NCBI RefSeq assembly: GCF_000027125.1
Contig: NC_017626.1
Length of the DNA: 64,000 bases
Source: Escherichia coli 042
GTDB lineage: Bacteria > Pseudomonadota > Gammaproteobacteria > Enterobacterales > Enterobacteriaceae
Direction: 5' to 3' (one strand)
Made by a program: the position numbers and the translations under genes. Shown piece by piece: positions 7,819-62,772 of this stretch (positions are counted from its first letter, which is position 1; every line of letters starts with the position of its first letter). The notes beneath the pieces are model-generated. The model saw only the letters and a list, made by a program, of their open reading frames with translations. It was not told the origin of the DNA and searched no databases.

Positions 7819-8337
7819 ATGCCAACCCCATGTTACATTTCAATTACAGGTCAGACCCAGGGGAACATCACTGCCGGTGCTTTCACCGCAGATTCTGTCG
7901 GCAATATCTACGTGCAGGGACACGAAGATGAAATGCTGGTGCAGGAGTTTCTGCATAACGTTACTGTTCCAACCGATCCACAGTCTGGTCAACCTTCCGG
8001 GCAGCGCGCGCACAAACCGTTCATTTTCACCGTGGCGCTGAACAAAGCCGTTCCGCTGCTGTACAACGCGCTGGCCTCCGGTGAAATGCTGCCGAAAGTG
8101 GAGCTGCACTGGTGGCGTACTTCAGTTGAAGGCAAGCAGGAGCACTACTTCACCACACGTCTTACTGACGCGACGATTGTGGACATGAACCTGCACATGC
8201 CGCACTGCCAGGACCCTGCACAGCGTGAGTTTACGCAATTGCTCGCAGTATCACTGGCATACCGTAAGGTTGAGTGGGAGCACATCAAATCCGGTACTTC
8301 TGGTGCCGATGACTGGCGTGCACCGCTGGAAGCATAA
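7819..8337 (+). CDS. hcp: T6SS inner tube protein Hcp
   Basis: 172-aa ORF with Hcp-family character; RBS AAGGAG 8 nt upstream; strong terminator downstream. Confidence 0.9.
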   Translation: MPTPCYISITGQTQGNITAGAFTADSVGNIYVQGHEDEMLVQEFLHNVTVPTDPQSGQPSGQRAHKPFIFTVALNKAVPLLYNALASGEMLPKVELHWWRTSVEGKQEHYFTTRLTDATIVDMNLHMPHCQDPAQREFTQLLAVSLAYRKVEWEHIKSGTSGADDWRAPLEA

Positions 8338-8348
8338 ATCTGAGTCAA

Positions 8349-8385
8349 CAACATCCTGCCTTCGTGCAGGATGTTGTTTTTGTAC
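8349..8385 (+). terminator. Rho-independent terminator after hcp
   Basis: Stem ACAACATCCTGC / GCAGGATGTTGT with 6-nt loop followed by TTTTT. Confidence 0.6.
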
Positions 8386-8557
8386 GTGTAAAAAATGAGT
8401 GTCAGTAAGGAGTTACGCTTTCATGAGGGAGATGGCGGATGCCGGAAACCCGGGCGGTAGCGTACCTGAAAATGTAAAGATGAGTGTAACGCTGCACTGG
8501 CACCCTTTGCTGCATGGTAAGAATCATTTGGTCCGTGAATAAATCAGGGAGGTCATT

Positions 8558-11355: not shown

Positions 11356-11376
11356 AAAGACAAACGGATAGATTAT

Positions 11377-12948
11377 ATGACATCTCCATCTTCGACAGCC
11401 GGAAAGCCCTGTGTGGAATGCGGCATTCCTGATCCATGTATTTTTGATGTTATTAGTGATTTTCCAGAGGCCGGCGAGAAACATTTCTGGTCAAAAGAAG
11501 GAGTGGCGCGTTTTAAGCTACTGGATGATGGTTCCGGATGTGATGGTATAATTACCATTACCTACCAGTGCGATAAAAGTGGAACACATGAGGCATGGTT
11601 AGAGGAAGAATCAGAAAATAATCATAAGATACTGCAACCTTTCGGAATACCTAATAAGGTCACTTTGGATGATAACTTGTCTGAAGGTGAAATAATTGCT
11701 ATGGGTACATTTCGAGTACCATGGGATTATTTGGGGGCAATATCCTCTCCACTTAAGAATCATTATGAACCTGCCCATTATTCAGTCAGAATTGACAGTT
11801 GTTACGAATGTGGCAATTATGTTGAAATTGATGTTTATCCTACAGTGGAAATTAGGTTTACTACAGGGTTCAGCTATGAGATTTCGTCATCAAAACAGAC
11901 GAGAACAGTAAAAGAGCGGCGTGACGAAAGAATAAAAGCCAGGGACGCAATGGAGAACACCAAGCCCAGGGATAAAAATAAACTCCGTAGCGGCTGGACA
12001 AATACCACTGCTGAGTTTGAGTGGATAAACAAGACTTCCCTGACTGTCGATTTTGGCGTAAAAATAGCTAATGTTGAACACACAAGTGAATATGAAAAAG
12101 AGATAAAAAAACTTCGACAAACAAAGCAACTGGAACAGATAGGAAGAATTGACTCTCTGGTCAAGAATGTCAATAAATATTTTGCGCCAGATCCTGACAA
12201 TAATAATGGTACGCGCAAATATGCATTGTTCAGTGCAAAAATAGAACCCGTTAAACTGGGTATATCGTATGCCTATCAATATACCGATATCCAGGATGGC
12301 CCCTGTCATTTTTATGGTTTGTTTGGTGCCCCATTTTTTGAAGCGTCGTTCAGATTCGATATTATTTCATTTATATGTGCATATTGTAAAGTCGAGTCAT
12401 TGGTCAACAGATGTCGTGAATATCTCCGTAAAAACGGAGCCAGTGTTGAATGCTATATCGAGATTTCAGCGGAGATTAATCTTGATCTTGGCGCAGTATA
12501 CGCTGAAAAGGATAAAAAATGGGAGTTTAATGTAAAGGAAAGTAACATCAAGCTCGGTTTAAAAGGTGTGGTGAGTGCGACGTTTGAGGCGAATGTTTTT
12601 GTTGTACAACTGACCGCCGAAGCGACTGCCTCTATAGAAGCGAAAGCTGGATTTGGATTTGATTCACATGATGACGGACTGGACCTAGCATTATTTCATG
12701 ACGGCATTAAAGGGAAGTTTGAATTTAAGATTGATGTGTCTCATGGTGAAGTTGATGAAAAAGGAAAGGGGAAGGAAAAGAGCGAAAAACCTGAGAAGAA
12801 AGATACCGTTGAGTGGCAGTTATGTGATCCTATGGAGGTAAAGGATTCACCATTACGGGTTAATTTATACGGTAAAGAACGCACTGTGGAGAAAAAAGTA
12901 ACACCGCCGAAGCCAGTGACAACGTGGACGATAGGTATGGATTATTAA
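11377..12948 (+). CDS. Candidate VgrG-delivered T6SS effector, family not recognised
   Basis: 523-aa AT-rich ORF immediately after vgrG and DUF4123; Cys-rich N-terminus (CVECGIPDPC), Lys/Glu-rich C-terminus; no GxSxG or HxKxxxxD motif seen. Confidence 0.45.
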   Translation: MTSPSSTAGKPCVECGIPDPCIFDVISDFPEAGEKHFWSKEGVARFKLLDDGSGCDGIITITYQCDKSGTHEAWLEEESENNHKILQPFGIPNKVTLDDNLSEGEIIAMGTFRVPWDYLGAISSPLKNHYEPAHYSVRIDSCYECGNYVEIDVYPTVEIRFTTGFSYEISSSKQTRTVKERRDERIKARDAMENTKPRDKNKLRSGWTNTTAEFEWINKTSLTVDFGVKIANVEHTSEYEKEIKKLRQTKQLEQIGRIDSLVKNVNKYFAPDPDNNNGTRKYALFSAKIEPVKLGISYAYQYTDIQDGPCHFYGLFGAPFFEASFRFDIISFICAYCKVESLVNRCREYLRKNGASVECYIEISAEINLDLGAVYAEKDKKWEFNVKESNIKLGLKGVVSATFEANVFVVQLTAEATASIEAKAGFGFDSHDDGLDLALFHDGIKGKFEFKIDVSHGEVDEKGKGKEKSEKPEKKDTVEWQLCDPMEVKDSPLRVNLYGKERTVEKKVTPPKPVTTWTIGMDY

Positions 12949-13014
12949 GTGATATTACAGAAATTAAAAGTGAACAGTATAATGAGTATTTTCCCCTTTT
13001 GAGAGAGAATAATT

Positions 13015-14025
13015 ATGAAGGCAAAACATTTAATATCGGTTATTTTACTGTCAGGAGTTGTTATGGGAACTGGATTTTGCTCTAACGATAACCAGCAAAA
13101 AATTCGCAGTAAGTTTAATATTGAAGAGTCATATTGTGCCATTAAGACTAATGGCGTCCTCGGGTTCAGTAACCGAAGAAGTGCCTGGCGGGCAAATGGT
13201 GATTCAACCGGGGCCATATCCAGCACCAATGCCATGATGCTGATGGCGAATGGAGAAAATGAAATCAGTCTGGAGATTGGGGCATTAGGATGGTTTTCTG
13301 ACAAGCCTGCCAGTATGGAAGAACGGGGGCGTTTTTTTCCAAAAGCAGGATGCAGCCTGGATTTGGTTCGTTTTATTAAACAGGAGGAAACGCTGCTTTC
13401 TTCAATAAAAGTGACCATCAACCAGCAGGGCATACCTGAAGCCCGGCCAGACAGCGTGCATCCCGTTATCCGGAAAGAGATTTTGGCTGAGCAGGCGGAG
13501 CCAGGATTTATTGATCCAGATTATTTTGATGAAACCTATTTCCCGAAAGGGATGAAGGTGTATCAGTTCACTCAAAAAGTTACCGTGACAGGGCTTCCTG
13601 AATGGGCCTGGACGCGGGCAACCCCCTATACCGGAAGCGACGAGCAGTTACGGAAGTTAAAAGCCGCCTATACCGAAATGGCAAGCATCATCAGTAGCCG
13701 GGACAGGGCACGTCTGAAAGCTTATAACAAAGAGGCGCTGAAGGCATGGTCAGCCACAACCGGTGACTCTGAGGATGACATATTACTCTCACTCTTCTCA
13801 AAAGATAATGTGGAGGGAGGGAAAGCCAGAATGCAGCCCATCAGGTGGGACGATTATGCCGTCCGGGTTATGAATGGTGGACGTATGGTGCAGCTATATA
13901 ATAAATCGAAACCAATATATTCCCCACTGACTTACCGTTTTACAGATGAAAGTGGTGAAGAGCGTATGGGGTATTACGCTCCGGTATTTTCGCTGATTGA
14001 TGGTCAGTTTATCCCTGTTACTTGA
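13015..14025 (+). CDS. Exported protein, candidate cognate immunity protein
   Basis: 336-aa ORF with N-terminal signal peptide and a Cys after the hydrophobic core (MGTGFC); sits directly downstream of the candidate effector. Confidence 0.4.
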   Translation: MKAKHLISVILLSGVVMGTGFCSNDNQQKIRSKFNIEESYCAIKTNGVLGFSNRRSAWRANGDSTGAISSTNAMMLMANGENEISLEIGALGWFSDKPASMEERGRFFPKAGCSLDLVRFIKQEETLLSSIKVTINQQGIPEARPDSVHPVIRKEILAEQAEPGFIDPDYFDETYFPKGMKVYQFTQKVTVTGLPEWAWTRATPYTGSDEQLRKLKAAYTEMASIISSRDRARLKAYNKEALKAWSATTGDSEDDILLSLFSKDNVEGGKARMQPIRWDDYAVRVMNGGRMVQLYNKSKPIYSPLTYRFTDESGEERMGYYAPVFSLIDGQFIPVT

Positions 14026-14054
14026 TTAACCTGTTGGGCTACAAATCAGGATGT

Positions 14055-14098
14055 CCGGTAAGGTGATTATTACTGAGTTAAGCACCTTACCGTTTTTT
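14055..14098 (+). terminator. Rho-independent terminator after the effector/immunity pair
   Basis: Stem CCGGTAAGGTG / CACCTTACCG followed by TTTTTT. Confidence 0.55.
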
Positions 14099-14334
14099 AA
14101 ATTTTTTGTCGCTGATATTCCAGACAGGAAAACAATATGCCTTTAGCTGCCAGATTAAACGACAAAGGTACCGGCACAGGGAAAGATCACGTAACGCTGC
14201 TTTTTTGTACTAAATAATTCGCATTTTATGTTTAAAATTTGAGATATTCCTCATTACCTGAGGCTGTTTTTTATTACTTATACATGATCAAATACTCCTT
14301 ACATAATTAAGGGGAACAAAATGGAACTTAAAAA

Positions 14335-15262
14335 TTGATGGAACATATTTCTGTTATTCCCGATTACAGACAAGCCTGGAAAGTGGAACATAAATTGTCG
14401 GATATTCTACTGTTGACTATTTGTGCCGTTATTTCGGGTGCAGAAGGTTGGGAAGATATAGAGGATTTTGGGGAAACACATCTCGATTTTTTAAAACAAT
14501 ACGGTGATTTTGAAAATGGTATTCCTGTTCACGATACCATCGCCAGAGTTGTATCCTGTATCAGTCCTGCAAAATTTCACGAGTGCTTTATTAACTGGAT
14601 GCGAGATTGCCATACTTCAGATGATAAAGACGTCATCGCAATTGATGGAAAAACGCTCCGGCACTCTTATGACAAGAGTCGCCGCAGGGGAGCGATTCAT
14701 GTCATTAGTGCGTTCTCAACAATGCACAGCCTGGTCATCGGACAGATCAAGACGGATGAGAAATCCAATGAGATTACAGCTATCCCAGAACTTCTTAACA
14801 TGCTGGATATTAAAGGAAAAATCATCACAACTGATGCGATGGGTTGCCAGAAAGATATTGCAGAGAAGATACAAAAACAGGGCGGTGATTATTTATTCGC
14901 TGTAAAAGGAAATCAGGGGCGGCTTAATAAAGCCTTTGAGGAAAAATTCCCACTGAAAGAATTAAATAATCCAGAGCATGACAGTTACGCAATGAGTGAA
15001 AAGAGTCACGGCAGAGAAGAAATCCGTCTTCATATTGTTTGCGATGTCCCTGATGAACTTATTGATTTCACGTTTGAATGGAAAGGACTGAAGAAATTAT
15101 GCGTGGCAGTCTCCTTTCGGTCCATAATAGCAGAACAAAAGAAAGAGCCAGAAATGACGGTCAGATATTATATCAGTTCTGCTGATTTAACCGCAGAGAA
15201 GTTCGCCACAGCAATCCGAAACCACTGGCACGTGGAGAATAAGCTGCACTGGCGTCTGGACG
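14335..15262 (+). CDS. ISAs1-family transposase, exon 1 (reading frame interrupted by the group II intron)
   Basis: Near-identical to the intact copy-B transposase up to ...HWRLD; one base fewer than copy B in the A-run near the start codon region. Confidence 0.8.
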
Positions 15263-17153
15263 GTGTGCCGCAGGAACACAAGATAGCTGCATAAGGATAC
15301 GCAGTTAGCTTTTGTATAAGCTCATAAAGAGATGGTGGAAGGCCCACCGGGATCGGCTGTCGGAAGCAGATTCCAAACCACTTCATGCTGCTGTGGTAAA
15401 GAGCCATGGTAGTGAGCGATGAAGTAAAGCGTGAGTGAAAACTCAGCAGGTAAGATACTCATGAGACGAGTGAACCCGAACCCATGTTGACGCGTCGTAA
15501 ACCAGAGACTGACATCAAAACCGAAGGGGCGTCCAGCCTTCGGGATAAGTCTGCGAGTGAATTCCGAATGCTGCGCAGACGGTGTCCGGCGTAAAGTGGG
15601 CGTGACGGAGTATCAGGCTCTTCCTGGGAACTGCGGGAACCTGTCGTTGTGATGATAAGGGAGAAATGCAAGTCACTGAATTGGCGAGCATGAAAGTACC
15701 GATGCACAGCACAGGGACGGAGCCGTTCGTAGTAGTGATGAAGCTTCTGTAATGGAGGTGGAGCGAAGGGGCGGCATCAGACAGTCTTTGGACAGTGTTC
15801 AACTGAACATGTTCAGGAGGAGACAATGACAAAGACAAAAGCGTTTAACATTGATAAGTCACTGGTGGTCAGCGCGTACAGGCGAGTGAAGACCAGTGCA
15901 GGCGCGGCGGGAATTGATAAGCAATCGCTGGCGGACTTTGATAAACGGTTAGTTGATAATCTGTACAAAATCTGGAACCGACTTTCTTCAGGAAGTTATT
16001 TCCCACCGGCAGTGAAAGCGGTGGCAATTCCGAAGAAATTGGGTGGAGAGAGAATTCTGGGTATCCCGACAGTCAGCGATCGTATCGCGCAGACGGTGGT
16101 AAAACTGGCCTTTGAGCCACAGGTTGAGCCACATTTTCTGGCAGACTCTTACGGCTACAGACCGAATAAATCGGCACTGGATGCTATAGGGGTAACGCGT
16201 AAGCGTTGCTGGTATTACGACTGGGTACTGGAATTTGACATCAAAGGGCTGTTCGATAACATCCCGCACGAACTGATAATGAAAGCCGTGGACAAACACA
16301 ATCCGGCCCGGTGGGTAAAATTGTATATACAGCGGTGGCTGACAGCGCCGATGGTGATGTCAGACGGAGAAGTCAGAGCACGAACAATGGGAACGCCGCA
16401 GGGAGGTGTCATAAGTCCGTTGCTGGCAAACCTGTTCATGCATTATGTGTTTGATAAATGGCTGGCAAAATATTATCCGAAAGTGCCGTGGTATCGATAT
16501 GCTGATGATGGCATTTTGCATTGTCACAGCGAAGCAGAAGCGACTGAAATGCGAGAAGTATTACGCAAAAGATTTAGCGAATGCGGACTGGAAATGCATC
16601 CGGAGAAAACGCGAGTTATCTACTGCAAAGATGGAAGCCGGAAGGGTGATTATGAACATACCATGTTCGACTTTCTGGGGTACACATTCAGGCGACGCGT
16701 AGTAAAGAACGTTAAGCGAAACAGTCTGTTTGTAAGTTTTACCCCCGCAGCGAGCAAATCAGCGCTAAAGGCAATGCGTCGGGAAATCAAAGCGACAGGG
16801 ATAAGGAAAAGAGTGGATTTAAGCATTGAGCAGATAGCGAAATGGATAAATCCAAAACTGAATGGCTGGATAAATTATTACGGGCGATATACCTGTTCGG
16901 AATTATACAGCGTGTTCAGATATATCAATAAAGCACTGGTGAGGTGGGGGCGTAAGAAATATAAAATGCTCAGCCGATACAAGACAAGAGCCTCAAAATT
17001 TCTGGAAGAAATGGCGAAGCGAAGTCCACAGTTGTTTGCCCACTGGCGTCTGAAGATGAGAGGCGGACTTGTTTGATGGGAGCGGTATGAGCCGAGAGGT
17101 TCACGTACCGTTCTGCGAGAGGCTGCGGGGGAGGTTCCTGCGGCCTACTCACC
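15263..17153 (+). mobile_element. Group II intron, same orientation as the host transposase gene
   Basis: Exactly fills the gap between the copy-A junction CTGGACG|TGGTAATG and the uninterrupted copy B; starts GTGTG; encodes an RT/maturase; a domain V-like hairpin (GAGCCGAGAGGTTCACGTACCGTTC) lies near the 3' end. Confidence 0.8.
15826..17076 (+). CDS. Group II intron-encoded reverse transcriptase/maturase
   Basis: 416-aa ORF with RT motifs ([10 protein letters not shown], the YADD box in [12 protein letters not shown]) and a C-terminal maturase-like region. Confidence 0.9.
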
Positions 17154-17347
17154 TGGTAATGAATGAAGACGACTGCAAAATAAGAAGAGGAAATGCAGCA
17201 GAATTATTTTCAGGGATACGGCACATCGCTATTAATATTTTGACGAATGATAAGGTATTCAAGGCAGGGTTAAGACGTAAGATGCGAAAAGCAGCCATGG
17301 ACAGAAACTATCTGGCGTCAGTCCTTGCGGGGTGCGGGCTTTCGTAA
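17154..17347 (+). CDS. ISAs1-family transposase, exon 2 (C-terminal segment)
   Basis: Translation [64 protein letters not shown] matches the C-terminus of copy B. Confidence 0.75.
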
Positions 17348-17378
17348 TCTTTCCCTGGATGTGAAAAGCAGCTGCGGA

Positions 17379-18669
17379 CAGGGAAAGATCATCAGAAGTA
17401 CACTTTTTGTACTAAACAATTCGCATTTTATGTTTAAAAATTGAGATATTCCTCATTACCTGAAGCTGTTTTTTATTGCTTATACATGATCAAATACTCC
17501 TTACATAATTAAGGAGAACAAAATGGAACTTAAAAAATTGATGGAGCATATTTCTATTATCCCCGATTACAGACAAGCCTGGAAAGTGGAACATAAATTA
17601 TCGGATATTCTACTGTTGACTATTTGTGCCGTTATTTCTGGTGCAGAAGGTTGGGAAGATATAGAGGATTTTGGGGAAACACATCTCGATTTTTTGAAGC
17701 AATATGGTGATTTTGATAATGGTATTCCTGTTCACGATACCATTGCCAGAGTTGTATCCTGTATCAGTCCTGCAAAATTTCACGAGTGCTTTATTAACTG
17801 GATGCGTGACTGCCATTCTTCAGATGATAAAGACGTCATTGCAATTGATGGAAAAACGCTCCGACACTCTTATGACAAGAGTCGCCGCAGGGGAGCGATT
17901 CATGTCATTAGTGCGTTCTCAACAATGCACAGCCTGGTCATCGGACAGATCAGGACGGATGAGAAATCTAATGAGATTACAGCTATCCCTGAACTTATTA
18001 ACATGCTGGATATTAAAGGAAAAATCATCACAACTGATGCGATGGGTTGCCAGAAAGATATTGCAGAGAAGATACAAAAACAGGGAGGTGATTATTTATT
18101 CGCTGTAAAAGGAAACCAGGGGCGGCTAAATAAAGCCTTCGAGGAAAAATTTCTGCTGAAAGAATTAAATAATCCAGAGCATGACAGTTACGCAATTAGT
18201 GAAAAGAGTCACGGCAGAGAAGAAATCCGTCTTCACATTGTTTGCGATGTCCCTGATGAACTTATTGATTTCACGTTTGAATGGAAAGGTCTGAAGAAAT
18301 TATGCGTGGCAGTCTCCTTTCGGTCAATAATAGCAGAACAAAAGAAAGAGCCCCAAATGACGGTCAGATATTATATCAGTTCTGCTGATTTAACCGCAGA
18401 GAAGTTCGCCACAGCAATCCGAAACCACTGGCACGTGGAGAATAAGCTGCACTGGCGTCTGGACGTGGTAATGAATGAAGACGACTGCAAAATAAGAAGA
18501 GGAAACGCAGCAGAATTATTTTCAGGGATACGGCACATTGCTATTAATATTTTGACGAATGATAAGGTATTCAAGGCAGGGTTAAGACGTAAGATGCGAA
18601 AAGCAGCCATGGACAGAAACTACCTGGCGTCAGTCCTTGCGGGGAGCGGGCTTTCGTAATCTTGCCCTG
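17379..18669 (+). mobile_element. ISAs1-family (H-repeat) insertion sequence, copy B (intact)
   Basis: Same terminal inverted repeats as copy A; single uninterrupted transposase ORF. Confidence 0.8.
17523..18659 (+). CDS. ISAs1-family (H-repeat-associated) transposase
   Basis: 378-aa ORF; recognised H-repeat protein family. Confidence 0.9.
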
Positions 18670-18778
18670 GTACAGTAAACAAACGAAAGTTGTTATTTCA
18701 ATGGTCAGGGCAAGAGCATGAAGTGTTTACTACACACTATGCTCTTGTCCTGGAGTCAGGTCTTGTTTGGAGGGATAA

Positions 18779-19282
18779 ATGGTAGATATTGTCGAGGCCG
18801 ATAAAACGGATATTTATTTCATTCAGGAGAGTGTTTATGGCAAAATCGGGTTGCCAGCTTTTGGTAATACAATAGGACCATCCGCACAGCAAGTTGTTAA
18901 AAAGGTATTCGCTGTCGTTAAAGAACGAGATAAGACACATGCAAAACAGAGATTATTGTTGGAATATAATGGTAACAAACTCTGGATGAATGCTATTGAT
19001 GGCAGTGAAGCTATCCTACCAACAGAATTTTCTAAGCGATACGAACTTTCATTATTTAATACTACTAATTTTGGAGAAGATCCTTTTCCTGATGTTAATT
19101 TATATAATAATATGAAATCAAGTTTTTTTGTAAGGTTTGGTGGAACATCCCATCCCGAGGCTTGGGCTATTTATAATGCAAGTACGAAAGAGGTTAAATA
19201 TATAGAAACTGCAAGAGAAATTGATAAAATATTCAGTGATTTTAACTTGAGTGGTACATTGCCAATTCACATTGGTCGATGA
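18779..19282 (+). CDS. Hypothetical protein (AT-rich orphan ORF)
   Basis: 167-aa ORF in a low-GC segment between the IS copies and the IS remnant; no recognisable motif. Confidence 0.3.
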   Translation: MVDIVEADKTDIYFIQESVYGKIGLPAFGNTIGPSAQQVVKKVFAVVKERDKTHAKQRLLLEYNGNKLWMNAIDGSEAILPTEFSKRYELSLFNTTNFGEDPFPDVNLYNNMKSSFFVRFGGTSHPEAWAIYNASTKEVKYIETAREIDKIFSDFNLSGTLPIHIGR

Positions 19283-19348
19283 TTTTTTAAATTGTGTGAT
19301 TAAATAATTGAACATTAATGATGATTTATAGCATTATTATTCTATAAC

Positions 19349-19861
19349 ATGAATAAACGGATTGAATGTGTTATGTTAAAAATAAGTTTATACGTAATAA
19401 TATTGTTATTTTCCTTTCAGATTAGTGCAGCCATTACTAGCAAGGAAAGTGAGGTTGTTTCACCATTATTAATGGATGTTAATTCTTCACTAACAATGGA
19501 AAATATTTCTGAATTATCCACATCATCGGAACCATCGCAACAGGGGGTATTTCCTGTAATATGTACTCGACTTCATCCTGGCTCCGTAATGAAACGCCAG
19601 TTATTAACCGGCTGGGGGCCTGTTTTTATAATTGGTGATGATCCTTTTTCTCTGCGCTGGATGAGTGAACATCTGGAGATCCTTAAATCGCTAAATGCCC
19701 TTGGTTTGGTTGTTAATGTTGAATCAGTAGAACGAATGGAGGTATTACAGCAGCGGGCTGATGGGTTATTGTTATTGCCAGTTATCTGCGATAATTTCGT
19801 GCAAACTCTGCAATTAAATGCTTATCCGGTATTAATCACAGAGATGGAAATATCACAATGA
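19349..19861 (+). CDS. Hypothetical secreted protein; C-terminal motif resembles an integrating-conjugative-element protein family
   Basis: 170-aa ORF with N-terminal signal peptide; FIIGDD...GLVVNVESVE...YPVLIT recalled as typical of the PFL_4695-type ICE protein family (from memory, unverified). Confidence 0.35.
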   Translation: MNKRIECVMLKISLYVIILLFSFQISAAITSKESEVVSPLLMDVNSSLTMENISELSTSSEPSQQGVFPVICTRLHPGSVMKRQLLTGWGPVFIIGDDPFSLRWMSEHLEILKSLNALGLVVNVESVERMEVLQQRADGLLLLPVICDNFVQTLQLNAYPVLITEMEISQ

Positions 19862-19889
19862 TTAATAACATAATTACTGCAAATAATAT

Positions 19890-20105
19890 CGTAATTTTGA
19901 AAATGGTAATCCTGTTCACGGCACCATAATTAGAGTTATGTCTTGTATCCGTTCAGTATAATTTCACGAATGCTTTATTAACTGGATGCGAGATTGCCAT
20001 TCATCAAATGATAAAGACGTCATCGCAATTGATGGAAAAGCGCTTCCACACTCCTATGATAAAAGTGGTCGCAGGGGAGCGGGCTTTCGTAGTCTTAGCC
20101 CGACT
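19890..20105 (+). mobile_element. Internally deleted ISAs1-family remnant
   Basis: Transposase codons about 60-120 (ENGNPVHGTI...[24 protein letters not shown]) fused directly to the IS right end CGGGCTTTCGTAGTCTTAGCCCG. Confidence 0.6.
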
Positions 20106-24841: not shown

Positions 24842-24980
<139 letters not shown>

Positions 24981-25040
24981 AAAATACTTAAATCAATCTT
25001 CGCCGGGGGCCATGCGCTCCCGCTGTTGTGGAGGTTACCC

Positions 25041-25808
25041 ATGTGCGAATTGCTCGGGATGAGCGCCAACGTCCCTACCGATATCTGCTTTAGTTTCACC
25101 GGGCTTGTACAGCGTGGTGGTGGAACCGGGCCACATAAAGATGGCTGGGGCATCACCTTTTACGAAGGTAAAGGCTGTCGCACATTTAAAGATCCACAAC
25201 CCAGCTTTAATTCCCCCATCGCCAAACTTGTCCAGGACTACCCGATAAAATCCTGTTCGGTTGTGGCTCATATTCGGCAGGCCAATCGGGGCGAGGTGGC
25301 GCTGGAAAATACTCACCCGTTTACCCGCGAGTTATGGGGACGCAACTGGACTTATGCCCATAACGGGCAACTGACGGGCTACAAATCACTGGAAACCGGC
25401 AACTTCCGCCCGGTCGGTGAAACCGATAGCGAAAAAGCCTTTTGCTGGCTCCTGCATAAATTAACGCAGCGTTACCCGCGCACACCGGGCAACATGGCGG
25501 CAGTGTTTAAATATATCGCCTCACTGGCGGATGAACTGCGGCAGAAGGGCGTTTTCAACATGCTGCTTTCAGACGGGCGCTATGTAATGGCGTATTGCTC
25601 GACTAATTTACACTGGATCACCCGCCGCGCGCCGTTTGGCGTGGCAACGTTGCTGGATCAGGATGTGGAAATCGACTTCAGCTCGCAGACCACACCTAAT
25701 GATGTGGTCACGGTGATTGCGACACAGCCGCTGACGGGCAATGAAACCTGGCAAAAGATTATGCCAGGCGAATGGCGCTTATTTTGCCTCGGGGAGCGTG
25801 TAGTTTGA
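25041..25808 (+). CDS. yafJ: Class II glutamine amidotransferase-like protein YafJ
   Basis: Starts [19 protein letters not shown], the N-terminal Cys nucleophile type; recognised as YafJ. Confidence 0.9.
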
Positions 25809-26519
25809 TGCCAGCTGTGGTTGCACAACTTCGTGGCTTAACGGCTTGCTGACCACGTAACGGCCATTGACCACAGAAACGGTCGGTGGCTTACGGGTTT
25901 GCTCAAAGTAGTCGTAGCCCGGTTTCAGTTGCTCCCAGAAGTCCTTAAAGTTGGAATACTTATGGCGCTTCATATTAGCGTCGGTCATACGGAACGGGTA
26001 AATACTCACTTGCACGCTCGGCTGACCAAACACCAGCGCACCAGTAACGAACTGGAAGATCTCATCAATACCCTGATTGGTCATCGCGTAGCAGCCGATG
26101 GAAACACAATCGCCGTGGATCATCAGGTATTTCCCTTCATAACCATGCGCACGGTCATAGGCATTGGGGAATCCAATATTAATCGCTTTGTAGTAACGGC
26201 TGTCTGGTTTTAACTGATTACGCTGGACGCTATAAAACCCTTCCGGGCTTTTGAAATCGCCCTGACGCTGTTTTGGTCCTAAGCCGCCGGAATATTTACA
26301 GATTTTATAGCTGTCGAGCAGTTGATATTGCTCGCCCATTTTGACGTAGAGATCGAGCGTACGTTCTTCCTTGAAGATCTGGATGTAGACAGGGGATCCC
26401 ATCAACTGCTGCTTATACTCTTTGCTCACTGGCGTGGTCGAGCTACTGCTGCCCAGCAAACCGGCAAACGAAACGCACGGGATCAACAACATCGCAAGAA
26501 TTAATGCGATTTTACGCAT
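25779..26519 (-). CDS. yafK: L,D-transpeptidase-family periplasmic protein YafK
   Basis: 246-aa ORF with signal peptide; recognised as YafK. Confidence 0.9.
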
Positions 26520-26810
26520 ACTGCTTATTCCTTGATAAAACGGTTACACACGCCAGGACGGCAAAATGGATCCCAAATCGGAATAGTCTGGATTTGGAAG
26601 GCTCACATTATCACCAAAAGAGTTTTACGCAAGCCTGTCGGCGCAGGGTTTACAAATTTAGCACAGGGGCAGTTTTCATTAGTCCGAAAAGCGCATGTAT
26701 CATTTATTTCCTAAGATTATGAAACCTCAATAGTAATATGCAAATAAGCAATTAATAATCCCGTTTACTCCTCCGGTCTTTTAAAATTCTCCCCTTCATT
26801 CAGCCGGTTT

Positions 26811-27569
26811 ATGTCCTTCATGTCTTCGTTCTTTCACGGCAGATTTCTGCATCCAGGCGTGTTTTCGTTATGCGTTTTGCTCCCTTTACTCGCCAGCGCC
26901 ACCACATCACATATCTCTTTCAGCTACGCCGCCCGCCAGCGGATGCAAAACCGTGCGCGTTTATTAAAACAGTACCAAACCCATCTGAAAAAACAGGCCA
27001 GCTATATTGTGGAAGGCAATGCCGAAAGCAGAAAGGCGCTGCGCCAGCACAACCGCGAACAGATAAAACAGCATCCAGAATGGTTTCCTGCGCCGCTCAA
27101 GGCGAGTGACAGACGCTGGCAGGCGCTGGCGGAGAACAACCATTTCTTAAGCAGCGACCATCTGCACAACATCACCGAAGTGGCGATTCACCGCCTGGAG
27201 CAGCAGCTTGGTAAGCCTTACGTCTGGGGCGGCACGCGGCCCGATCAAGGCTTCGACTGTAGCGGGTTGGTTTTTTATGCCTACAACAAGATCCTCGAGG
27301 CGAAGCTCCCGCGCACGGCCAATGAGATGTATCACTACCATCGGGCAACGATTGTGGCGAATAACGACCTGCGCCGGGGAGATTTGCTGTTTTTCCATAT
27401 TCACAGCCGTGAGATTGCCGATCATATGGGCGTGTATCTGGGAGACGGTCAGTTTATCGAGTCGCCGCGCACCGGGGAAACCATTCGGGTAAGTCGGTTA
27501 GCTGAACCTTTCTGGCAGGATCATTTTTTAGGCGCGCGCAGGATTTTGACGGAAGAGACGATTTTGTAG
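26811..27569 (+). CDS. yafL: NlpC/P60-family peptidoglycan peptidase lipoprotein YafL
   Basis: 252-aa ORF with the NlpC/P60 catalytic Cys context (GFDCSGLVFYAY) and His (HMGVYLGDGQFIESP). Confidence 0.85.
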   Translation: MSFMSSFFHGRFLHPGVFSLCVLLPLLASATTSHISFSYAARQRMQNRARLLKQYQTHLKKQASYIVEGNAESRKALRQHNREQIKQHPEWFPAPLKASDRRWQALAENNHFLSSDHLHNITEVAIHRLEQQLGKPYVWGGTRPDQGFDCSGLVFYAYNKILEAKLPRTANEMYHYHRATIVANNDLRRGDLLFFHIHSREIADHMGVYLGDGQFIESPRTGETIRVSRLAEPFWQDHFLGARRILTEETIL

Positions 27570-27655
27570 GACGGATAAGGCGTTCACGCCGCATCCGGCA
27601 ATAGTGCACCGATGCCTGATGCGACGCTGCCGCGTCTTATCATGCCTACGAGTCT
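27568..27655. repeat. REP elements
   Basis: GGATAAGGCGTTCACGCCGCATCCGGCA ... TGCCTGATGCGACGCTGCCGCGTCTTATCATGCCTAC. Confidence 0.8.
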
Positions 27656-27745
27656 GCGAATTTTTTGCGAGCTGCTTTCCCGATATAACACAACTTCATT
27701 GTCGACTTTTCCTTTTCTTCTTATCGTTGAGAAAAAGGAGTCGCC

Positions 27746-28243
27746 ATGTCTGAATATCGTCGTTATTACATCAAGGGGGGAACATGGTTTTTCACGGTAC
27801 ATTTACGGAATCGTCGAAGCCAACTTTTGACCACCCAGTACCAGACACTCCGTAACGCCATTATTAAAGTTAAGCAGGCCAGACCTTTTGAAATTAACGC
27901 CTGGGTAGTTTTGCCAGAGCATATGCACTGTATCTGGACATTACCCGAAAGTGATGATGATTTTTCCTCTCGCTGGCGGGAGATTAAAAAGCAGTTCACC
28001 CATGCTTGCGGATTGAAAAATATCTGGCAACCGCGTTTTTGGGAGCATGCCATTCGCAATACAAAAGATTATCGCCATCATGTTGATTATATTTATATAA
28101 ATCCAGTGAAACATGGCTGGGTAAAGCAGGTGAGTGATTGGCCATTCTCAACGTTCCATCGCGATGTAGCGCGAGGGTTATATCCCATTGATTGGGCGGG
28201 AGACATAACGGATTTTAGTGCCGGGGAGCGTATTATTTTATAA
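27746..28243 (+). CDS. rayT: REP-associated tyrosine transposase RayT (TnpA-REP, YafM)
   Basis: 165-aa ORF with the IS200/IS605-like HxH region (LPEHMHCIW) and catalytic Tyr region; recognised as rayT. Confidence 0.9.
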   Translation: MSEYRRYYIKGGTWFFTVHLRNRRSQLLTTQYQTLRNAIIKVKQARPFEINAWVVLPEHMHCIWTLPESDDDFSSRWREIKKQFTHACGLKNIWQPRFWEHAIRNTKDYRHHVDYIYINPVKHGWVKQVSDWPFSTFHRDVARGLYPIDWAGDITDFSAGERIIL

Positions 28244-28247
28244 TTGT

Positions 28248-28665
28248 GCGCGGATGCCTGATGCGACGCAGGCGCGTCTTATCATGCCTACAAACTTGTG
28301 CCGGATCGGTGGGCCGGATAAGGCGTTCACACCGCATCCGGCAATTGTGCACCGGTGCCTGATGCGACGCTGGCGCGTCTTATCATGCCTACAAACCTGT
28401 GCCGGATCGGTGGGCCGGATAAGGCGTTCACACCGCATCCGGTAATTGTGCACCGGTGCCTGATGCGACGCTGGCGCGTCTTATCATGCCTACAAACCTG
28501 TGCCGGATCGGTGGGCTGGATAAGGCGTTCACACCGCATCCGGCAATTGTGCGCAGATGCCTGATGCGACGCTGACGCGTCTTATCATGCCTACAAACTT
28601 GTGCCGGATCGGTAGGCCGGATAAGGCGTTCACGCCGCATCCGGCAATTGTGCACCGATGCCGGA
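28248..28665. repeat. BIME/REP array (about four ~100-bp units) directly downstream of rayT
   Basis: Unit TGCCTGATGCGACGCTGGCGCGTCTTATCATGCCTACAAACCTGTGCCGGATCGGTGGGCCGGATAAGGCGTTCACACCGCATCCGG repeats with about 100-bp period. Confidence 0.85.
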
Positions 28666-34911: not shown

Positions 34912-35059
34912 GGCTTACTTTCTCTGCTGTAATGGTATGGGTGTTTCTGTGCACGCAAATCCGGCTGTGACACAAGGTGAGGTATTAAATAGAGGGGGAG
35001 TGAAAGGGGCAAATTATTAATAGGGTGAAGATATAATTAAATTATTAATGGGTGATATA

Positions 35060-35168
<109 letters not shown>

Positions 35169-35298
35169 GGTGTTGCATGTAACTGGTTGTTTAATAACAA
35201 TTAATATTTTTATTATCGTTTAATTCGAACTTGTTAATCCCGCCGGTGATACGCTTCAGAACATCCTGATTAATGTCGCTACTTATATCGTTCACCCT

Positions 35299-36279
35299 AT
35301 GTCTGAACTTATTGCAACTGCCGCTTCCAGCATTAACGCTTTTACTCTGGCAAAGCGTGTCGCCGCATTTAACGTGCCGGTGCTCATTCAGGGCGAAACC
35401 GGTGCGGGCAAAGAGTGCGTGGCGAAATATATTCACTCCGTAGCCTTTGGTGAAAACGCGCCCTATATCGGCGTGAACTGCGCGGCGATCCCGGAAAATA
35501 TGCTGGAAGCGACCTTATTTGGCTACGACAAAGGCGCATTTACCGGCGCAATTGCCAGCGTACCAGGCAAAATGGAACTGGCGAATAACGGCACCTTATT
35601 GCTCGATGAAATTGGCGATATGCCGCTGGCGCTACAGGCCAAAATATTACGCGTATTGCAGGAACAGCAGGTTGAGCGATTAGGCAGTAACCGACAAATT
35701 AAACTCAATTTTCGCCTGATTGCCTGCACCAATAAAAACCTTGAGCAGGAAGTCGCCGCCGGGCGTTTTCGTGAAGATCTCTATTATCGTCTGGCGGTTA
35801 TTCCTATTACCATGCCGCCGCTGCGTGAACGCCTGAACGATATTATCCCGCTGGCAGAGTCATTTATTAAAAAATACTCCACAGTGCTGGTGAAAAATAT
35901 CACCCTTTCAGAATCTACTCGCCGGGCGCTGCTCAATTACCGCTGGCCCGGCAACGTGCGCCAGCTGGAGAACGCCATTCAGCGTGGAATGATTTTAAAT
36001 CGCGACGGCGTGATTTTCCCGGATGCCTTAGGCCTGCCGGAAATAGACGTTGCCGATCACAGTGAACTGCAATGGCCTGTTCAGCCCTCCGTATCTGTTG
36101 CGGAAACCAGCGATTTAGGCCAGGCCGGACGTAGCGCCCAGTATCAATATATCGCCGACCTGATGCGTAAATATCAGGGCAACCGCAGCAAAATTGCCGA
36201 CCTGTTAGGCATTACCCCGCGCGCACTGCGCTATCGACTGGCCTCCATGCGCAAGCAAGGTATCGAAGTTTTCTCCTGA
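35299..36279 (+). CDS. lafK: Sigma-54-dependent transcriptional activator LafK, AAA+ plus HTH only, no N-terminal regulatory domain
   Basis: Walker A GETGAGKE about 30 aa from the start, GAFTGA motif present, C-terminal HTH (KIADLLGITPRALRYRL). Confidence 0.85.
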   Translation: MSELIATAASSINAFTLAKRVAAFNVPVLIQGETGAGKECVAKYIHSVAFGENAPYIGVNCAAIPENMLEATLFGYDKGAFTGAIASVPGKMELANNGTLLLDEIGDMPLALQAKILRVLQEQQVERLGSNRQIKLNFRLIACTNKNLEQEVAAGRFREDLYYRLAVIPITMPPLRERLNDIIPLAESFIKKYSTVLVKNITLSESTRRALLNYRWPGNVRQLENAIQRGMILNRDGVIFPDALGLPEIDVADHSELQWPVQPSVSVAETSDLGQAGRSAQYQYIADLMRKYQGNRSKIADLLGITPRALRYRLASMRKQGIEVFS

Positions 36280-57882: not shown

Positions 57883-58227
57883 ATGATGTGGGACGTCGAG
57901 ACAACGGAGACTTTCGACAACTGGTTTGATGCCCAGACTGTTGCGCTGAAAGAAGATTTACTTGCTGCAATGCTGATTCTTGCTGAGTATGGCCCACAGT
58001 TGGGCAGACCCTTTGCGGATACGGTTAATGATTCACAGTTTTCAAATATGAAAGAATTACGCGTCCAACATCAGGGAAACCCGGTACGTGCTTTTTTTGC
58101 TTTCGATCCTGCGCGCCGTGGCATTGTATTATGTGCGGGTGATAAAACGGGGTTAAATGAGAAAAAGTTTTATCGCGATATGATCAAGCTCGCTGATTCT
58201 GAATACCGTAAGCATCTGAAAAAGTAA
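57883..58227 (+). CDS. RelE/ParE-superfamily toxin (HigB-like, toxin-first arrangement)
   Basis: 114-aa ORF (MMWDVETTETFDNWFD...GPQLGRPFADT...KELRVQHQGNPVRAFFAFDPARRGIVLCAGDKTG) matching the addiction-module killer protein family. Confidence 0.7.
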   Translation: MMWDVETTETFDNWFDAQTVALKEDLLAAMLILAEYGPQLGRPFADTVNDSQFSNMKELRVQHQGNPVRAFFAFDPARRGIVLCAGDKTGLNEKKFYRDMIKLADSEYRKHLKK

Positions 58228-58236
58228 GGAACGATA

Positions 58237-58536
58237 ATGGCTACTCTAAAAGAACTGATGGCAAAGCAAAGCCCTGAAAGCCAGGCGCGTATTGCGGCAA
58301 AAGTTGAGGAAATGCGCCAGACCATCGCCTTGCATCAGCTGAGAGAAGAACTCAATATTTCGCAAACGGAAATGGCGGCAGCGATGGGCATTAAGCAACC
58401 GACTCTTGCAAAAATGGAGCAGGCAGATAACGATCCTCGGTTGTCTACGCTAAAACGCTATGTTGCGGCTTTAGGTGGGGAATTGAGTATCGACGTTAAA
58501 CTGCCGAATGGTAAGAGAATTGCATTTCAGATTTAA
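58237..58536 (+). CDS. HTH (XRE-type) antitoxin, HigA-like
   Basis: 99-aa ORF 10 nt after the toxin gene; HTH region ELNISQTEMAAAMGIKQPTLAKME. Confidence 0.7.
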   Translation: MATLKELMAKQSPESQARIAAKVEEMRQTIALHQLREELNISQTEMAAAMGIKQPTLAKMEQADNDPRLSTLKRYVAALGGELSIDVKLPNGKRIAFQI

Positions 58537-59487: not shown

Positions 59488-59921
59488 AAAGCACAGTCTT
59501 ATACGTCCCTGAGAAGATGATTTTTCTGCGTGATAATTAATATTTTATGGTGATAAGATTATTCTTAATCACTATATAGCGTGGAAATGTAACGAAATGA
59601 CAGGACAGGTACAATAGCCAAATGTGTACTATTTGCAACGCAATGTAAATTTTGGCATCAGTACATTGAGAACAAAACGCGATAATTGATGACAATCTTA
59701 ACTATATCAAGCGTTTGATAAAGACATATTTTGATACCTGGCCATGTGGCAGATATTGCTAATAATCTTTTTATCTGAATTTAAACTCTGCTTTTTTTAG
59801 CTAAAAGTGGCATCGGATAATACGTGGCGAAAAAATTATAACGGCGATTTTAAGTTTGCTCCTGAGGTGTCGTTTTTACAGGGTATCGAAACGAAAACGA
59901 TTAATCCCAAGGAGCAGTATC

Positions 59922-60836
59922 ATGTTATCTATTAACACCAATAACGCCTCAATGGCCGCCGTTAATGCAATCAGCAAAAGCAGCTCTTCTCTGTCTACAT
60001 CTATGGAACGCCTGGCGACAGGTAACCGGATTAACTCTTCTGCCGATGACGCCGCAGGCAAACAAATTGCTAACCGTCTGACAGCACAGTCCAGCGGTAT
60101 GGGTGTTGCGCTGAGCAACATCAATGATGCCACCGCGATGCTGCAAACCGCTGACAGCATGTTCGACGAAATGTCTGACGTGCTGGGTCGTATGAAAGAC
60201 CTGTCAACTCAGGCAGCGAACGGCACCTACAGCGACGACGACCTGCAGGCGATGCAGGACGAATACGACGAACTGGGCCAGCAGATGTCTGACATGCTGC
60301 AAAACACCACTTACGGCGGCACCAACCTGTTCGGTGTTTCCGGTACCAGCAACACCGGTACTGACGGTCTGTTCCAGAGCGCGGTAACTTTCCAGGTGGG
60401 CGCGGAATCTTCCGACACCATGACCGTGAATATTTCAAGCCAGCTGAATACCCTGGTGACGGATCTTTCTGCAATCAGCAACTCCTTTAGTGCGGATCAG
60501 GCTGACACCACTGGCACCGCAGGCGTTTCTGGCGGTACTGAGCTGACTGCGTCTGGCTCGGCTAACCAGATGATCACCAGCATCTCTACCGCGATGGATG
60601 ACGTGTCTCAGATCCAGTCCAAGCTGGGTGCCTCTATCAACCGTCTGAACGACACTGCCAACAACCTGACCAGTATGCAAGACAACACCGAAGTCGCTAT
60701 CGGTAACATCATGGATACCGACTACGCGACGGAAGCGTCCAATATGACCAAACAGCAAGTGCTGATGCAGACTGGCATCACCATGCTGAAACAGTCCAAC
60801 AGCATGTCCAGCATGGTTTCCAGCCTGCTGCAGTAA
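59922..60836 (+). CDS. lafA: Lateral flagellin
   Basis: Start at MLSINTNNASMAAVNAI with RBS AAGGAG; conserved flagellin N- and C-terminal domains, short central region (304 aa). Confidence 0.9.
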   Translation: MLSINTNNASMAAVNAISKSSSSLSTSMERLATGNRINSSADDAAGKQIANRLTAQSSGMGVALSNINDATAMLQTADSMFDEMSDVLGRMKDLSTQAANGTYSDDDLQAMQDEYDELGQQMSDMLQNTTYGGTNLFGVSGTSNTGTDGLFQSAVTFQVGAESSDTMTVNISSQLNTLVTDLSAISNSFSADQADTTGTAGVSGGTELTASGSANQMITSISTAMDDVSQIQSKLGASINRLNDTANNLTSMQDNTEVAIGNIMDTDYATEASNMTKQQVLMQTGITMLKQSNSMSSMVSSLLQ

Positions 60837-60880
60837 TGGCGGACTTGCCGATGCGGCGTAAACGCCTTATCCGGCCACGA

Positions 60881-60906
60881 ACAACACCGCCTGCGGGCGG
60901 TGTTGT
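60881..60906 (+). terminator. Rho-independent terminator after lafA, adjacent to a single REP unit
   Basis: Stem ACAACACCGCC / GGCGGTGTTGT with loop TGCG followed by GCTTTC. Confidence 0.55.
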
Positions 60907-60993
60907 GCTTTCAGCGGCAGGCTTTTTTCCGCCAGAACGGAAACGTCATTTCCGCCTGTTTTTCAATCTATTGATTATTCACATAAAAAATAT

Positions 60994-61009
60994 TGGCACG
61001 CCTTTTGCC
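60994..61009 (+). promoter_or_regulatory. Sigma-54 (-24/-12) promoter upstream of lafB
   Basis: TGGCAC-GCCTT-TTGCC, consensus spacing, about 32 nt upstream of the lafB ATG. Confidence 0.75.
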
Positions 61010-61040
61010 ATTAACCTGACATCGTTACCCGGAGTCATCA

Positions 61041-62357
61041 ATGATTAACCCAAGAACCATTGCGCAAGAAATTGCTTATGCGGATGTCGCCACCCAGGCG
61101 GCAAATTTGCAGGAGAAGCAGACCGAGCTGGACGCTGAAAGCAGCGGCCTGGACTCGCTCAGCTCGGCGTTAAGCGATTTCCAGAGCGCCGTTGACGCGC
61201 TGAACAGCGATACCGACGGCCCGGTGACTTTTGCCGCCACCAGCAATAATGACTCGGCGACCGTTTCCGCTAACTCGCAGGCACAGGCGGGAAGCTACTC
61301 GTTTTTCGTTGAGCAACTGGCGCAGGGGCAGCAAACCACGTTCAGTATGGGCGACGACGCCTTTTCCGCTACCGGTACTTTTGAACTGACGATGGGCGAC
61401 AGCACCATGGATATCGATCTGTCGGCGGCAGATCAGAACGGTGACGGCGACGGTTTTATCGACGCCAGCGAACTGGTGAACGCGATTAACGACTCCGATG
61501 ATAATCCAGGCGTTTCAGCGGCGTTGGTGAAAACCGACGGCACCACCACCATTATGCTCACCTCCGATAGCACCGGGGCGCAGAGCGCGTTTTCGGTGAG
61601 CGTAACGGGGCATGATGCCAGCAACGATAGCACCAGCGCGCCCGTTGCCACGGTTGTTTCCTCAGCCCAGGACGCGATTATTCATCTCGGTAGCGCCACG
61701 GGCCCGGCGATCACCAACAGCAGCAATACGTTTGATGATGTGATCCCCGGCGTCACCATGACTTTTACCGAAGTCAGCGATTCTGACAGCGACCTCACCA
61801 CTTTTAACATCAGCGAAGATTCCAGCTCCAGCCAGGAGAAAGTACAGACTTTTGTCGATGCCTATAACACCTTGATTGATACGGTTGATTCGCTAACCAC
61901 TCACGGTGATGACAGTACCAGCGCCGGGGTATTTGCAGGCGACGCCGGACTCAGTTCACTGGCGAACCAGCTCGATGACATCGCCCATGCCAGCTACAAC
62001 GGCGTGTCGATTGTTGACTATGGCATCACCCTCGATTCTCACGGCCACTTACAGATTGACTCCGACCAGTTCAACGACGAAATGGCGAAAAATCCTGACG
62101 GTCTGACCTCTATTTTCGTTGGCGACAACAGCATGGTAGCGCAGATGGACGACCTGATTAACACCTACACGGACTCCAGCAACGGCATCATCACCCTGCG
62201 CCAGCAGAACATTGACGATCAGATGAGCAAAATTCAGGACGAAGGCGATCAGCTTACTGATACCTATAACGCCAACTACGACCGTTATCTCGAGGAGTAC
62301 ACCAACACGCTGGTCGAGGTGTACACCATGAAAGCCAGCATGGCGGCATTCGCGTAA
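61041..62357 (+). CDS. lafB: Filament cap protein FliD homolog
   Basis: 438-aa ORF with FliD-like N- and C-terminal coiled-coil segments. Confidence 0.85.
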   Translation: MINPRTIAQEIAYADVATQAANLQEKQTELDAESSGLDSLSSALSDFQSAVDALNSDTDGPVTFAATSNNDSATVSANSQAQAGSYSFFVEQLAQGQQTTFSMGDDAFSATGTFELTMGDSTMDIDLSAADQNGDGDGFIDASELVNAINDSDDNPGVSAALVKTDGTTTIMLTSDSTGAQSAFSVSVTGHDASNDSTSAPVATVVSSAQDAIIHLGSATGPAITNSSNTFDDVIPGVTMTFTEVSDSDSDLTTFNISEDSSSSQEKVQTFVDAYNTLIDTVDSLTTHGDDSTSAGVFAGDAGLSSLANQLDDIAHASYNGVSIVDYGITLDSHGHLQIDSDQFNDEMAKNPDGLTSIFVGDNSMVAQMDDLINTYTDSSNGIITLRQQNIDDQMSKIQDEGDQLTDTYNANYDRYLEEYTNTLVEVYTMKASMAAFA

Positions 62358-62379
62358 CTCAGAAGGAATATCCCTAAAG

Positions 62380-62772
62380 ATGTACCAAGTACAGGACGGC
62401 TATTCGCAATATAAAGAGATCGATCTCGCGGCGCGTACCGCGGCGGCATCGCCTCTGGAACTGGTGCTGGTGCTGTTTTCTGGCCTGATGGACGAGCTGG
62501 AACGCGCCAAAAGCCATATTGAAGGGCGGCGTTTCGAGAAGAAAGCCCAGAGCATCAATAAATGCATCGACATTCTCAATGCGCTCACCAGTTCGCTGGA
62601 ATTTGAAACCGGCGGCGAGCTGGTGGTCAACCTTTCGCGCCTCTATGACCACTGCGTTTACCGATTGTATGAAGCCAGCGGCGAACTGTCGGCAGAGAAA
62701 ATCGATGAAGTGATGCTGATCTTAAGCAACCTGCGCGAAGGCTGGGAAGGGCTTTCGGGCAAGCTGGGTTAA
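62380..62772 (+). CDS. lafC: Flagellin chaperone FliS homolog
   Basis: 130-aa ORF with FliS character. Confidence 0.85.
   Translation: MYQVQDGYSQYKEIDLAARTAAASPLELVLVLFSGLMDELERAKSHIEGRRFEKKAQSINKCIDILNALTSSLEFETGGELVVNLSRLYDHCVYRLYEASGELSAEKIDEVMLILSNLREGWEGLSGKLG

Follow-up and report, generated by a model that had tools for sequence, protein, structure and literature searches.

The TGGCAC-N5-TTGC element just upstream of lafB in the Flag-2 locus is very probably the class-2 promoter of the lafB operon, run by sigma-54 and the activator LafK and separate from the lafA flagellin unit. The window is a 64,000-nucleotide stretch of Escherichia coli DNA, and we infer sigma-54, LafK and IHF binding, the start site and activity in the present strain. 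The promoter and the gene that follows it comprise these features.

60994 to 61009, plus strand: sigma-54 (-24/-12) promoter element TGGCACGCCTTTTGCC of lafB, with GG at 60995-96 and GC at 61007-08.
61019 to 61021, plus strand: predicted lafB transcription start, placed by standard sigma-54 geometry 11-13 nt past the -12 GC, with a leader of about 21 nt.
61031 to 61034, plus strand: Shine-Dalgarno sequence GGAG of lafB, read from the sequence and kept in the Enterobacterales alignment.
61041 to 62357, plus strand: lafB, first gene of the operon, encoding a FliD-type filament cap (open reading frame with FliD_N and FliD_C domains, annotated fliD).

The initial annotation had placed TGGCAC-GCCTT-TTGCC about 32 nt before the lafB ATG, and this was confirmed. 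TGGCAC occupies 60994-60999, GCCTT 61000-61004 and TTGCC 61005-61009 on the plus strand, with 31 nt between the element and the ATG at 61041 and the Shine-Dalgarno sequence in between. The GG and GC are spaced canonically for sigma-54, with ten bases between them. Compared with TGGCACG-N4-TTGCW, the single departure is a final C in place of the consensus A or T; this C is common to the whole E. coli/Pseudocitrobacter clade. A weight-matrix scan ranked TGGCACGCCTTTTGC, an exact match to TGGCAC-N5-TTGC, as the second best site in the window at 16.9 bits. Counting both strands, the 64 kb contain the exact motif twice where 0.28 copies are expected; among 100 shuffles, 4 had two or more. Allowing one mismatch gave 6 matches in the window against 7.0 expected. 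Because the one-mismatch count equals chance, the motif alone is weak evidence, and its position is what counts.

Conservation was measured in loci found by an alignment of LafB relatives, which led to 80 fetched loci (one genome per species), 47 of them of the lateral type. The search used a 9-sequence LafB alignment; a 29-sequence alignment was too divergent. All 47 lateral-type loci have a sigma-54 site 28-56 nt ahead of the lafB start, with scores of 12.7-19.4 bits, and across these loci the minus strand and coding sequence score much lower than the lafB site. The enteric loci come from Escherichia, Pseudocitrobacter, Citrobacter, Phytobacter and two further Enterobacteriaceae, and the others from the Pseudomonas mendocina group, Stutzerimonas, Enterovibrio, Photobacterium, Vibrio, Ferrimonas and a Cellvibrionaceae metagenome-assembled genome. 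LafB identity drops to about 30% across this set and the five spacer bases vary, while the GG and TTGC are invariant. Fixed promoter bases amid a diverging spacer and protein point to the footprint of a functional sigma-54 promoter. The site is absent before the more distant FliD genes of Colwellia, Pseudoalteromonas, Massilia and Leeia. Within the species, the 16-mer, the arms of an upstream inverted repeat and the Shine-Dalgarno sequence are invariant in five E. coli alleles with 88-100% identity. The lafB gene of V. campbellii, taken from chromosome 2 (filed as a plasmid in PLSDB), has the sigma-54 motif AGGCACACATCTTGCG at the same place. Among the matches listed from a protein search with Vibrio LafB, V. 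fluvialis and V. furnissii predominated. In metagenomes, matches to the published 19-mer came solely from unrelated gut contigs, none of which has a FliD gene downstream.

The lafB site had been called the "second" sigma-54 promoter; the site stands and the count does not, since the window has three such promoters. The top three weight-matrix scores, at 47580 (plus), 60994 (plus) and 45935 (minus), are far above the remainder. All three sites are intergenic within Flag-2 and oriented toward the next gene, 31-36 nt before its start (36 nt for lfgB, 31 nt for lafB and 34 nt for a FliB-like lysine-N-methylase gene). The two additional promoter modules are as follows.

47514 to 47595, plus strand: predicted lfgB promoter module, with the repeat GGAAATAAAACTTCC (47514-28) and TGGCACAGCGATTGCT (47580-95); the lfgB ATG is at 47632.
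45920 to 45990, minus strand: predicted promoter module of the FliB-like lysine-N-methylase gene, with the repeat at 45990-45976 and CGGCACGCTTATTGCA at 45935-45920; the ATG is at 45885.

The methylase-gene module also precedes a 40%-identical orthologue in Enterobacteriaceae RIT691 (locus L021, 2089-2169, minus strand). With its own sigma-54 promoter and repeat, the methylase gene suggests that flagellin modification falls within the LafK regulon. The same weight-matrix scan of the window found no comparable sigma-54 site upstream of lafA, lafK, lfiM, lfgA or lafZ, and GGAA-N7-TTCC is absent from the upstream regions of lafK, lfiM, lfgA and lafZ (34912-35298, 47551-47631 minus and 59488-59921).

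Two further elements lie between the lafA gene and the lafB promoter element.

60938 to 60954, no strand assigned: inverted repeat CGGAAACGTCATTTCCG with core GGAA-N7-TTCC at 60939-60953, a candidate LafK enhancer by conservation and co-occurrence.
60964 to 60976, minus strand: perfect match to the IHF core consensus, AATCAATAGATTG (WATCAANNNNTTR), located between the repeat and the -24 element; the window has 6 such cores where 1.9 are expected.

The repeat is centered about 49 bp upstream of the -24 GG, near -74. The lafB and methylase-gene promoters are alike over about 80 bp, and the 9-mer TTCCGCCTG is common to all three promoters. This 9-mer is the right arm of the repeat, and its only three copies in the window lie 44, 44 or 55 bp before the three -24 hexamers. 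GGAA-N7-TTCC occurs five times in the window against 1.0 expected, three of the copies at sigma-54 promoters. The other two (11415, and 51662 inside lfgG) lack a nearby sigma-54 site and match the chance rate, as do two V. campbellii copies in motY-like and flhB-like open reading frames. The position of the repeat is identical in every Enterobacterales lafB promoter, and every distant lafB promoter has it too. Its offsets from the -24 hexamer fall at about -55, -66, -75 and -99, in steps of approximately whole helical turns. GGAA-N7-TTC[CA] was present within 130 nt upstream of 51/51 such promoters compared to 0/82 other sigma-54-like matches of at least 12.5 bits (Fisher p = 5e-38). The 51 are all lafB promoters in the fetched DNA, the three promoters of the window and that of the RIT691 methylase gene. 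Outside lafB promoters the repeat was found 10 times in 686 kb against 10.5 expected, which is the chance rate.

A consensus of cGGAAR-N5-YTTCCgc was derived from 38 distinct sites. Its fifth positions, R and Y, vary independently, with the non-pairing A.C combination in 6/38, and the arms are invariant. As an RNA hairpin the repeat is weak (-7.2 kcal/mol, z = -1.2). The U-run after it is missing in most orthologues, and the lfgB copy sits inside the divergent lfgA coding region. An intrinsic terminator at 60938-60954 was rejected on these grounds: the weak stem, the sequence-fixed arms, the usual lack of a U-run and the copy in lfgA. The constraint acts on sequence and not on pairing, which argues for a protein-binding site, and the hairpin is more likely an enhancer than a terminator. 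An enhancer centered near -74 is closer to its promoter than most known enhancers. An extra TTCC at 60927-60930, 8-9 bp upstream of the repeat (TTCC-N8-GGAA-N7-TTCC), is kept in most Enterobacterales lafB promoters. In the Pseudomonas group, the promoters have the repeat near -100 and, near -60, an additional imperfect copy, GGAA-N7-TTCA.

Of 34 lafB promoters, 12 have a perfect IHF core in the interval from repeat to promoter, compared to a background of 0.012 per 110 nt. Other Enterobacterales have near-matches with 1-2 mismatches at the equivalent position, as judged by eye from the alignment. Two overlapping IHF cores are also found at 59705-59720 in the lafZ-lafA intergenic region.

The window encodes the activator that would use such a site.

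35299 to 36279, plus strand: lafK, encoding a sigma-54 activator of 326 amino acids with an AAA+ domain at residues 6-244, HTH_8 at 282-315 and no N-terminal sensor domain.

LafK matches PF00158 (E = 1.7e-64) together with AAA_lid_14 and HTH_8, and the GAFTGA motif is present. It has been classed with PspF and HrpRS (PMC3162934). The E. coli protein begins at the AAA+ domain, and the V. campbellii LafK (444 amino acids; locus L092, 8101-9432, minus strand) is extended at its N terminus by about 122 residues. Identity across the region common to both proteins is 48%, with good conservation of the HTH. LafZ is described as specific to Enterobacterales Flag-2 loci (PMC6993521), and a protein so restricted cannot be the binder of a widely conserved repeat. 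LafK is the natural candidate to bind it. A definition of a LafK binding site was not found in the open-access literature, and in that role the conserved repeat may be new. The chances are about even that CGGAAR-N5-YTTCCG is a LafK site kept throughout the gammaproteobacterial lateral systems since they arose, with an IHF site between it and the promoter and with an E. coli regulon of three promoters; that regulon would comprise lfgB, lafB and a flagellin lysine-methylase/glycosyltransferase unit.

The flagellin gene upstream appears to be controlled differently. Its features are listed here.

59922 to 60836, plus strand: lafA, lateral flagellin, called from the open reading frame, annotation and domains.
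59850 to 59876, plus strand: predicted sigma-28-type promoter of lafA, TTAAGTTT (59850-57), N11 and GTCGTTTT (59869-76), a conserved block.
60850 to 60876, plus strand: REP element just past the lafA stop, one of 12 copies in the window (0 expected).
60881 to 60906, plus strand: likely lafA terminator by folding, an 11-bp G+C-rich hairpin ACAACACCGCC/GGCGGTGTTGT followed by GCTTTC.

The claim that lafA has no obvious sigma-54 site held: the best match in 59488-59922 reached 1.9 bits compared to 16.9 for lafB. Alignment of 13 Enterobacterales lafA upstream regions identified the common block TTAAGTTT-N11-GTCG(T/C)(T/A)TTT, which we take to resemble the FliA consensus TAAAGTTT-N11-GCCGATAA. Only G.CG of the lafA -10 element agrees with the Flag-1 consensus. 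A strict search for TAAA-N15-GCCGATAA with up to 3 mismatches gave 94 uninformative matches, none of them upstream of lafA on the right strand. Vibrionaceae have CCGCATAG at the equivalent -10 position before lafA.

The lafB motif had also been placed after the lafA terminator. This was upheld in part: the REP element and the strong hairpin at 60881-60906 (-23 kcal/mol, z = -4.7) follow lafA; the second hairpin, at 60938-60954, is better read as a candidate enhancer. The GGCGGTGTT...TTT arm of the lafA hairpin is kept in Citrobacter, Phytobacter and RIT691. The U-run after the hairpin is poor (GCUUUC), so some lafA read-through is possible. The REP region gave only sub-threshold naRNA4 matches in Rfam. 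The 12 REP copies are at 24846-28641, 35084, 51083, 51183, 54389 and 60850, and five are in Flag-2 intergenic regions, including one between lfiM and lafK (35084-35110). A tandem run of four (28312-28641) adjoins the REP-associated transposase gene rayT (27751-28248).

Over its lafA-lafB part (59500-62400), the window agrees at 100% identity with E. coli chromosomes whose annotation there names lateral flagellin LafA, FliD and FliS. Flag-2 in a strain with the identical segment runs lfhAB-lfiRQPNM, lafK, lfiEFGHIJ, the modification genes, lfgNMA, lfgB-L and lafW, followed by a toxin-antitoxin pair, lafZ, lafA and an eight-gene run from fliD (lafB) to lafU. Reference coordinates are shifted by 5-6 bp in places, and open reading frame coordinates were therefore taken from the window itself. 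By the annotation of that strain, the lafB operon consists of fliD, fliS, a hypothetical gene, fliK-like and fliL-like genes, a FliA-type sigma factor gene, motA and lafU, with gaps of -4 to 22 nt. The unit had been described as the cap and chaperone genes; both are included, but it is wider, with eight packed genes from fliD to lafU.

Flag-2 is carried by 1275/5426 complete E. coli genomes (about 23%). The rod gene lfgC (47970-48403) has a 2-bp insertion at 48015-48016 relative to strain CB6837 that causes a frameshift and a stop after 21 codons. We take this lesion to resemble a frameshift that has been reported in lfgC of strain 042. Among complete RefSeq E. coli genomes, none matched the 301-bp stretch around the insertion at 99% or above; the best, at 97.3%, lacks the insertion. 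With lfgC frameshifted, the Flag-2 flagellum is probably not assembled in the present strain, and selection on the promoter may for that reason be relaxed here. The lafA-lafB segment (59500-62400) is 100% identical to CB6837, yet in the lfgB-lfgC segment (47900-48200) identity to complete genomes reaches no more than about 97%, and this unequal identity suggests a mosaic, recombinant locus. Inside Flag-2, between lafW and lafZ (57883-58536), are genes for a toxin of the RelE/ParE family and an HTH antitoxin. Positions 1-20000 of the window contain a cluster for type VI secretion and, split by a group II intron (ltrA, 15831-17081), a transposase gene of the ISAs1 family.

The proposed mechanism starts with sigma-54 polymerase bound to the GG (60995-96) and GC (61007-08) in a closed complex that would be unable to open alone. 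LafK would probably bind CGGAAA-N5-TTTCCG at 60938-60954, and an IHF-type bend at 60964-60976 would carry it to the polymerase. The promoter would open on ATP hydrolysis, with transcription beginning near 61020 and running from lafB to lafU. The predicted products are the cap, the chaperones, one hook-length and one FliL-like protein, LafS (the sigma-28 factor) and the stators. Since the sigma-28 gene lies inside the operon, the lafB promoter would link LafK to sigma-28 and hence to lafA, in a cascade from LafK/sigma-54 through the lafB operon with lafS to sigma-28 and lafA.

Similar arrangements are known from other systems. NtrC sites have the form TGCACC-N5-GGTGCA and occur in tandem at -110 and -140. 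The repeat shares their 6-N5-6 layout, in which the half-sites are separated by one helical turn, the spacing expected of a dimeric Fis-type HTH; it differs in its half-site (CGGAAR compared to TGCACC) and in being a single site near -74 in Enterobacterales and not a tandem pair. At E. coli pspA, the activator PspF has only AAA+ and HTH domains (about 325 amino acids, no sensor), and the enhancer is near the promoter with an IHF site between. LafK and lafB, as predicted here, resemble PspF and pspA in activator architecture, close enhancer and intervening IHF site, whereas neither the regulon nor the DNA motif is related. PspA controls PspF, and we know of no such partner for LafK.

The closest parallels are lateral systems. 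The lafB site is the E. coli counterpart of a known V. parahaemolyticus class-2 promoter and is expected, not surprising. At V. parahaemolyticus fliD_L (lafB), as in E. coli, the order is flagellin, fliD-type cap, chaperones and then the sigma-28 and stator genes; the sigma-54 motif is at the same place, and flagellin is under sigma-28, as predicted here for E. coli. V. campbellii, of the same genus, has the same repeat at -68 from the lafB promoter compared to -55 in E. coli, where it is one helical turn nearer. The E. coli site is also closer to consensus (TGGCAC compared to AGGCAC), its LafK lacks the Vibrio N-terminal region of about 122 residues, and a REP element is inserted after lafA. 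In V. parahaemolyticus, the hierarchy of Stewart and McCarter 2003, as summarized in PMC4481668, places the LafK/sigma-54-dependent genes, including the lateral sigma-28 gene, in class 2 and flagellin in class 3. The published hierarchy for A. hydrophila, as summarized in PMC5013049 and PMC4481668 (Wilhelms et al. 2013), likewise has sigma-54/LafK at class 2 and flagellin at class 3. Aeromonas resembles the arrangement predicted for E. coli in its LafK-dependent class-2 promoters and class-3 flagellin promoter, and the same accounts describe several clusters there as transcribed independently of LafK. An A. hydrophila lafK mutation lowers lateral PflgB from 970 to 20 Miller units, and PlafA collapses too (PMC5013049). 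The sigma-54 motif TAGGCACGTATCTTGCGAT is listed upstream of V. parahaemolyticus lafB, and lafBCD transcripts drop in an rpoN mutant (PMC9817140). Purified RpoN without core polymerase gave no shift of the lafB promoter fragment by EMSA in that study; it bound the lafA promoter with the weak motif GTGGCAAGCGACCTGCCTC and not lafB with a good motif (PMC9817140). This binding pattern, obtained without core polymerase, is opposite to the prediction from conserved motifs. The conserved site, the terminator, the sigma-28-type lafA promoter, the encoded LafK and the published hierarchies together support the earlier proposal that lafB is transcribed separately from flagellin under LafK/sigma-54.

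Other readings of the locus were considered. One is that an ancestral promoter has stayed intact in sequence here yet is silent or of no relevance, with Flag-2 cryptic and lafK perhaps unexpressed; this is unlikely. The truncated lfgC fits a cryptic system, E. coli Flag-2 has been called non-functional (PMC4481668), and lafK itself lacks an upstream sigma-54 site or repeat. Against silence, the 16-mer, repeat arms and Shine-Dalgarno sequence stay invariant though the alleles differ by up to 12% nearby, which argues for purifying selection in the species, and the region is retained in nearly a quarter of complete genomes. A rod-gene frameshift stops assembly, not class-2 transcription; by the logic of the flagellar checkpoint, lafB would still be transcribed here if LafK is made, and lafA would be off. 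Expression of lafB mainly by read-through from the sigma-28 lafA promoter, with the sigma-54 site minor or redundant, is less probable still. Two points count for such read-through: class-2 and class-3 promoters both transcribe fliD in Salmonella and in E. coli Flag-1, and the U-run after the 60881-60906 hairpin is weak. That hairpin is nonetheless very stable and conserved, and with lafS inside the lafB operon, expression from sigma-28 alone would be circular. The sigma-54 site and repeat are moreover kept wherever lafB is found, including Pseudomonas-group loci in which a tblastn search, limited to matches that align from the first five residues of LafA, detected no flagellin gene in the 4 kb upstream of lafB.

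The chance that the motif is a random match or a small minus-strand hairpin or terminator (TGGCA...TGCCA) with no promoter role is close to nil. A terminator scan did flag TGGCAAAAGGCGTGCCA plus a T-run on the minus strand, and the one-mismatch motif is no commoner than chance. Conservation in all 47 lateral-type loci excludes a chance match. The stem would have only 5 bp, no minus-strand gene ends there, and other genera have TTGCT at -12, which loses the pairing and keeps the sigma-54 spacing. The hairpin reading was rejected on this conservation.

A LafK/sigma-54 promoter at lafB therefore remains the preferred reading. Flag-2 is present in about a quarter of complete E. coli genomes, and how it is expressed is poorly understood. 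The mapped promoter, candidate enhancer and IHF site are direct targets for reporter and mutational tests, and the repeat together with the -24/-12 pair provides a motif for identifying LafK-controlled genes in any genome. The promoter would put the lateral sigma-28 gene, the cap, the chaperones and the stators under LafK/sigma-54, and this placement of the sigma-28 gene would explain why flagellin has a different promoter.
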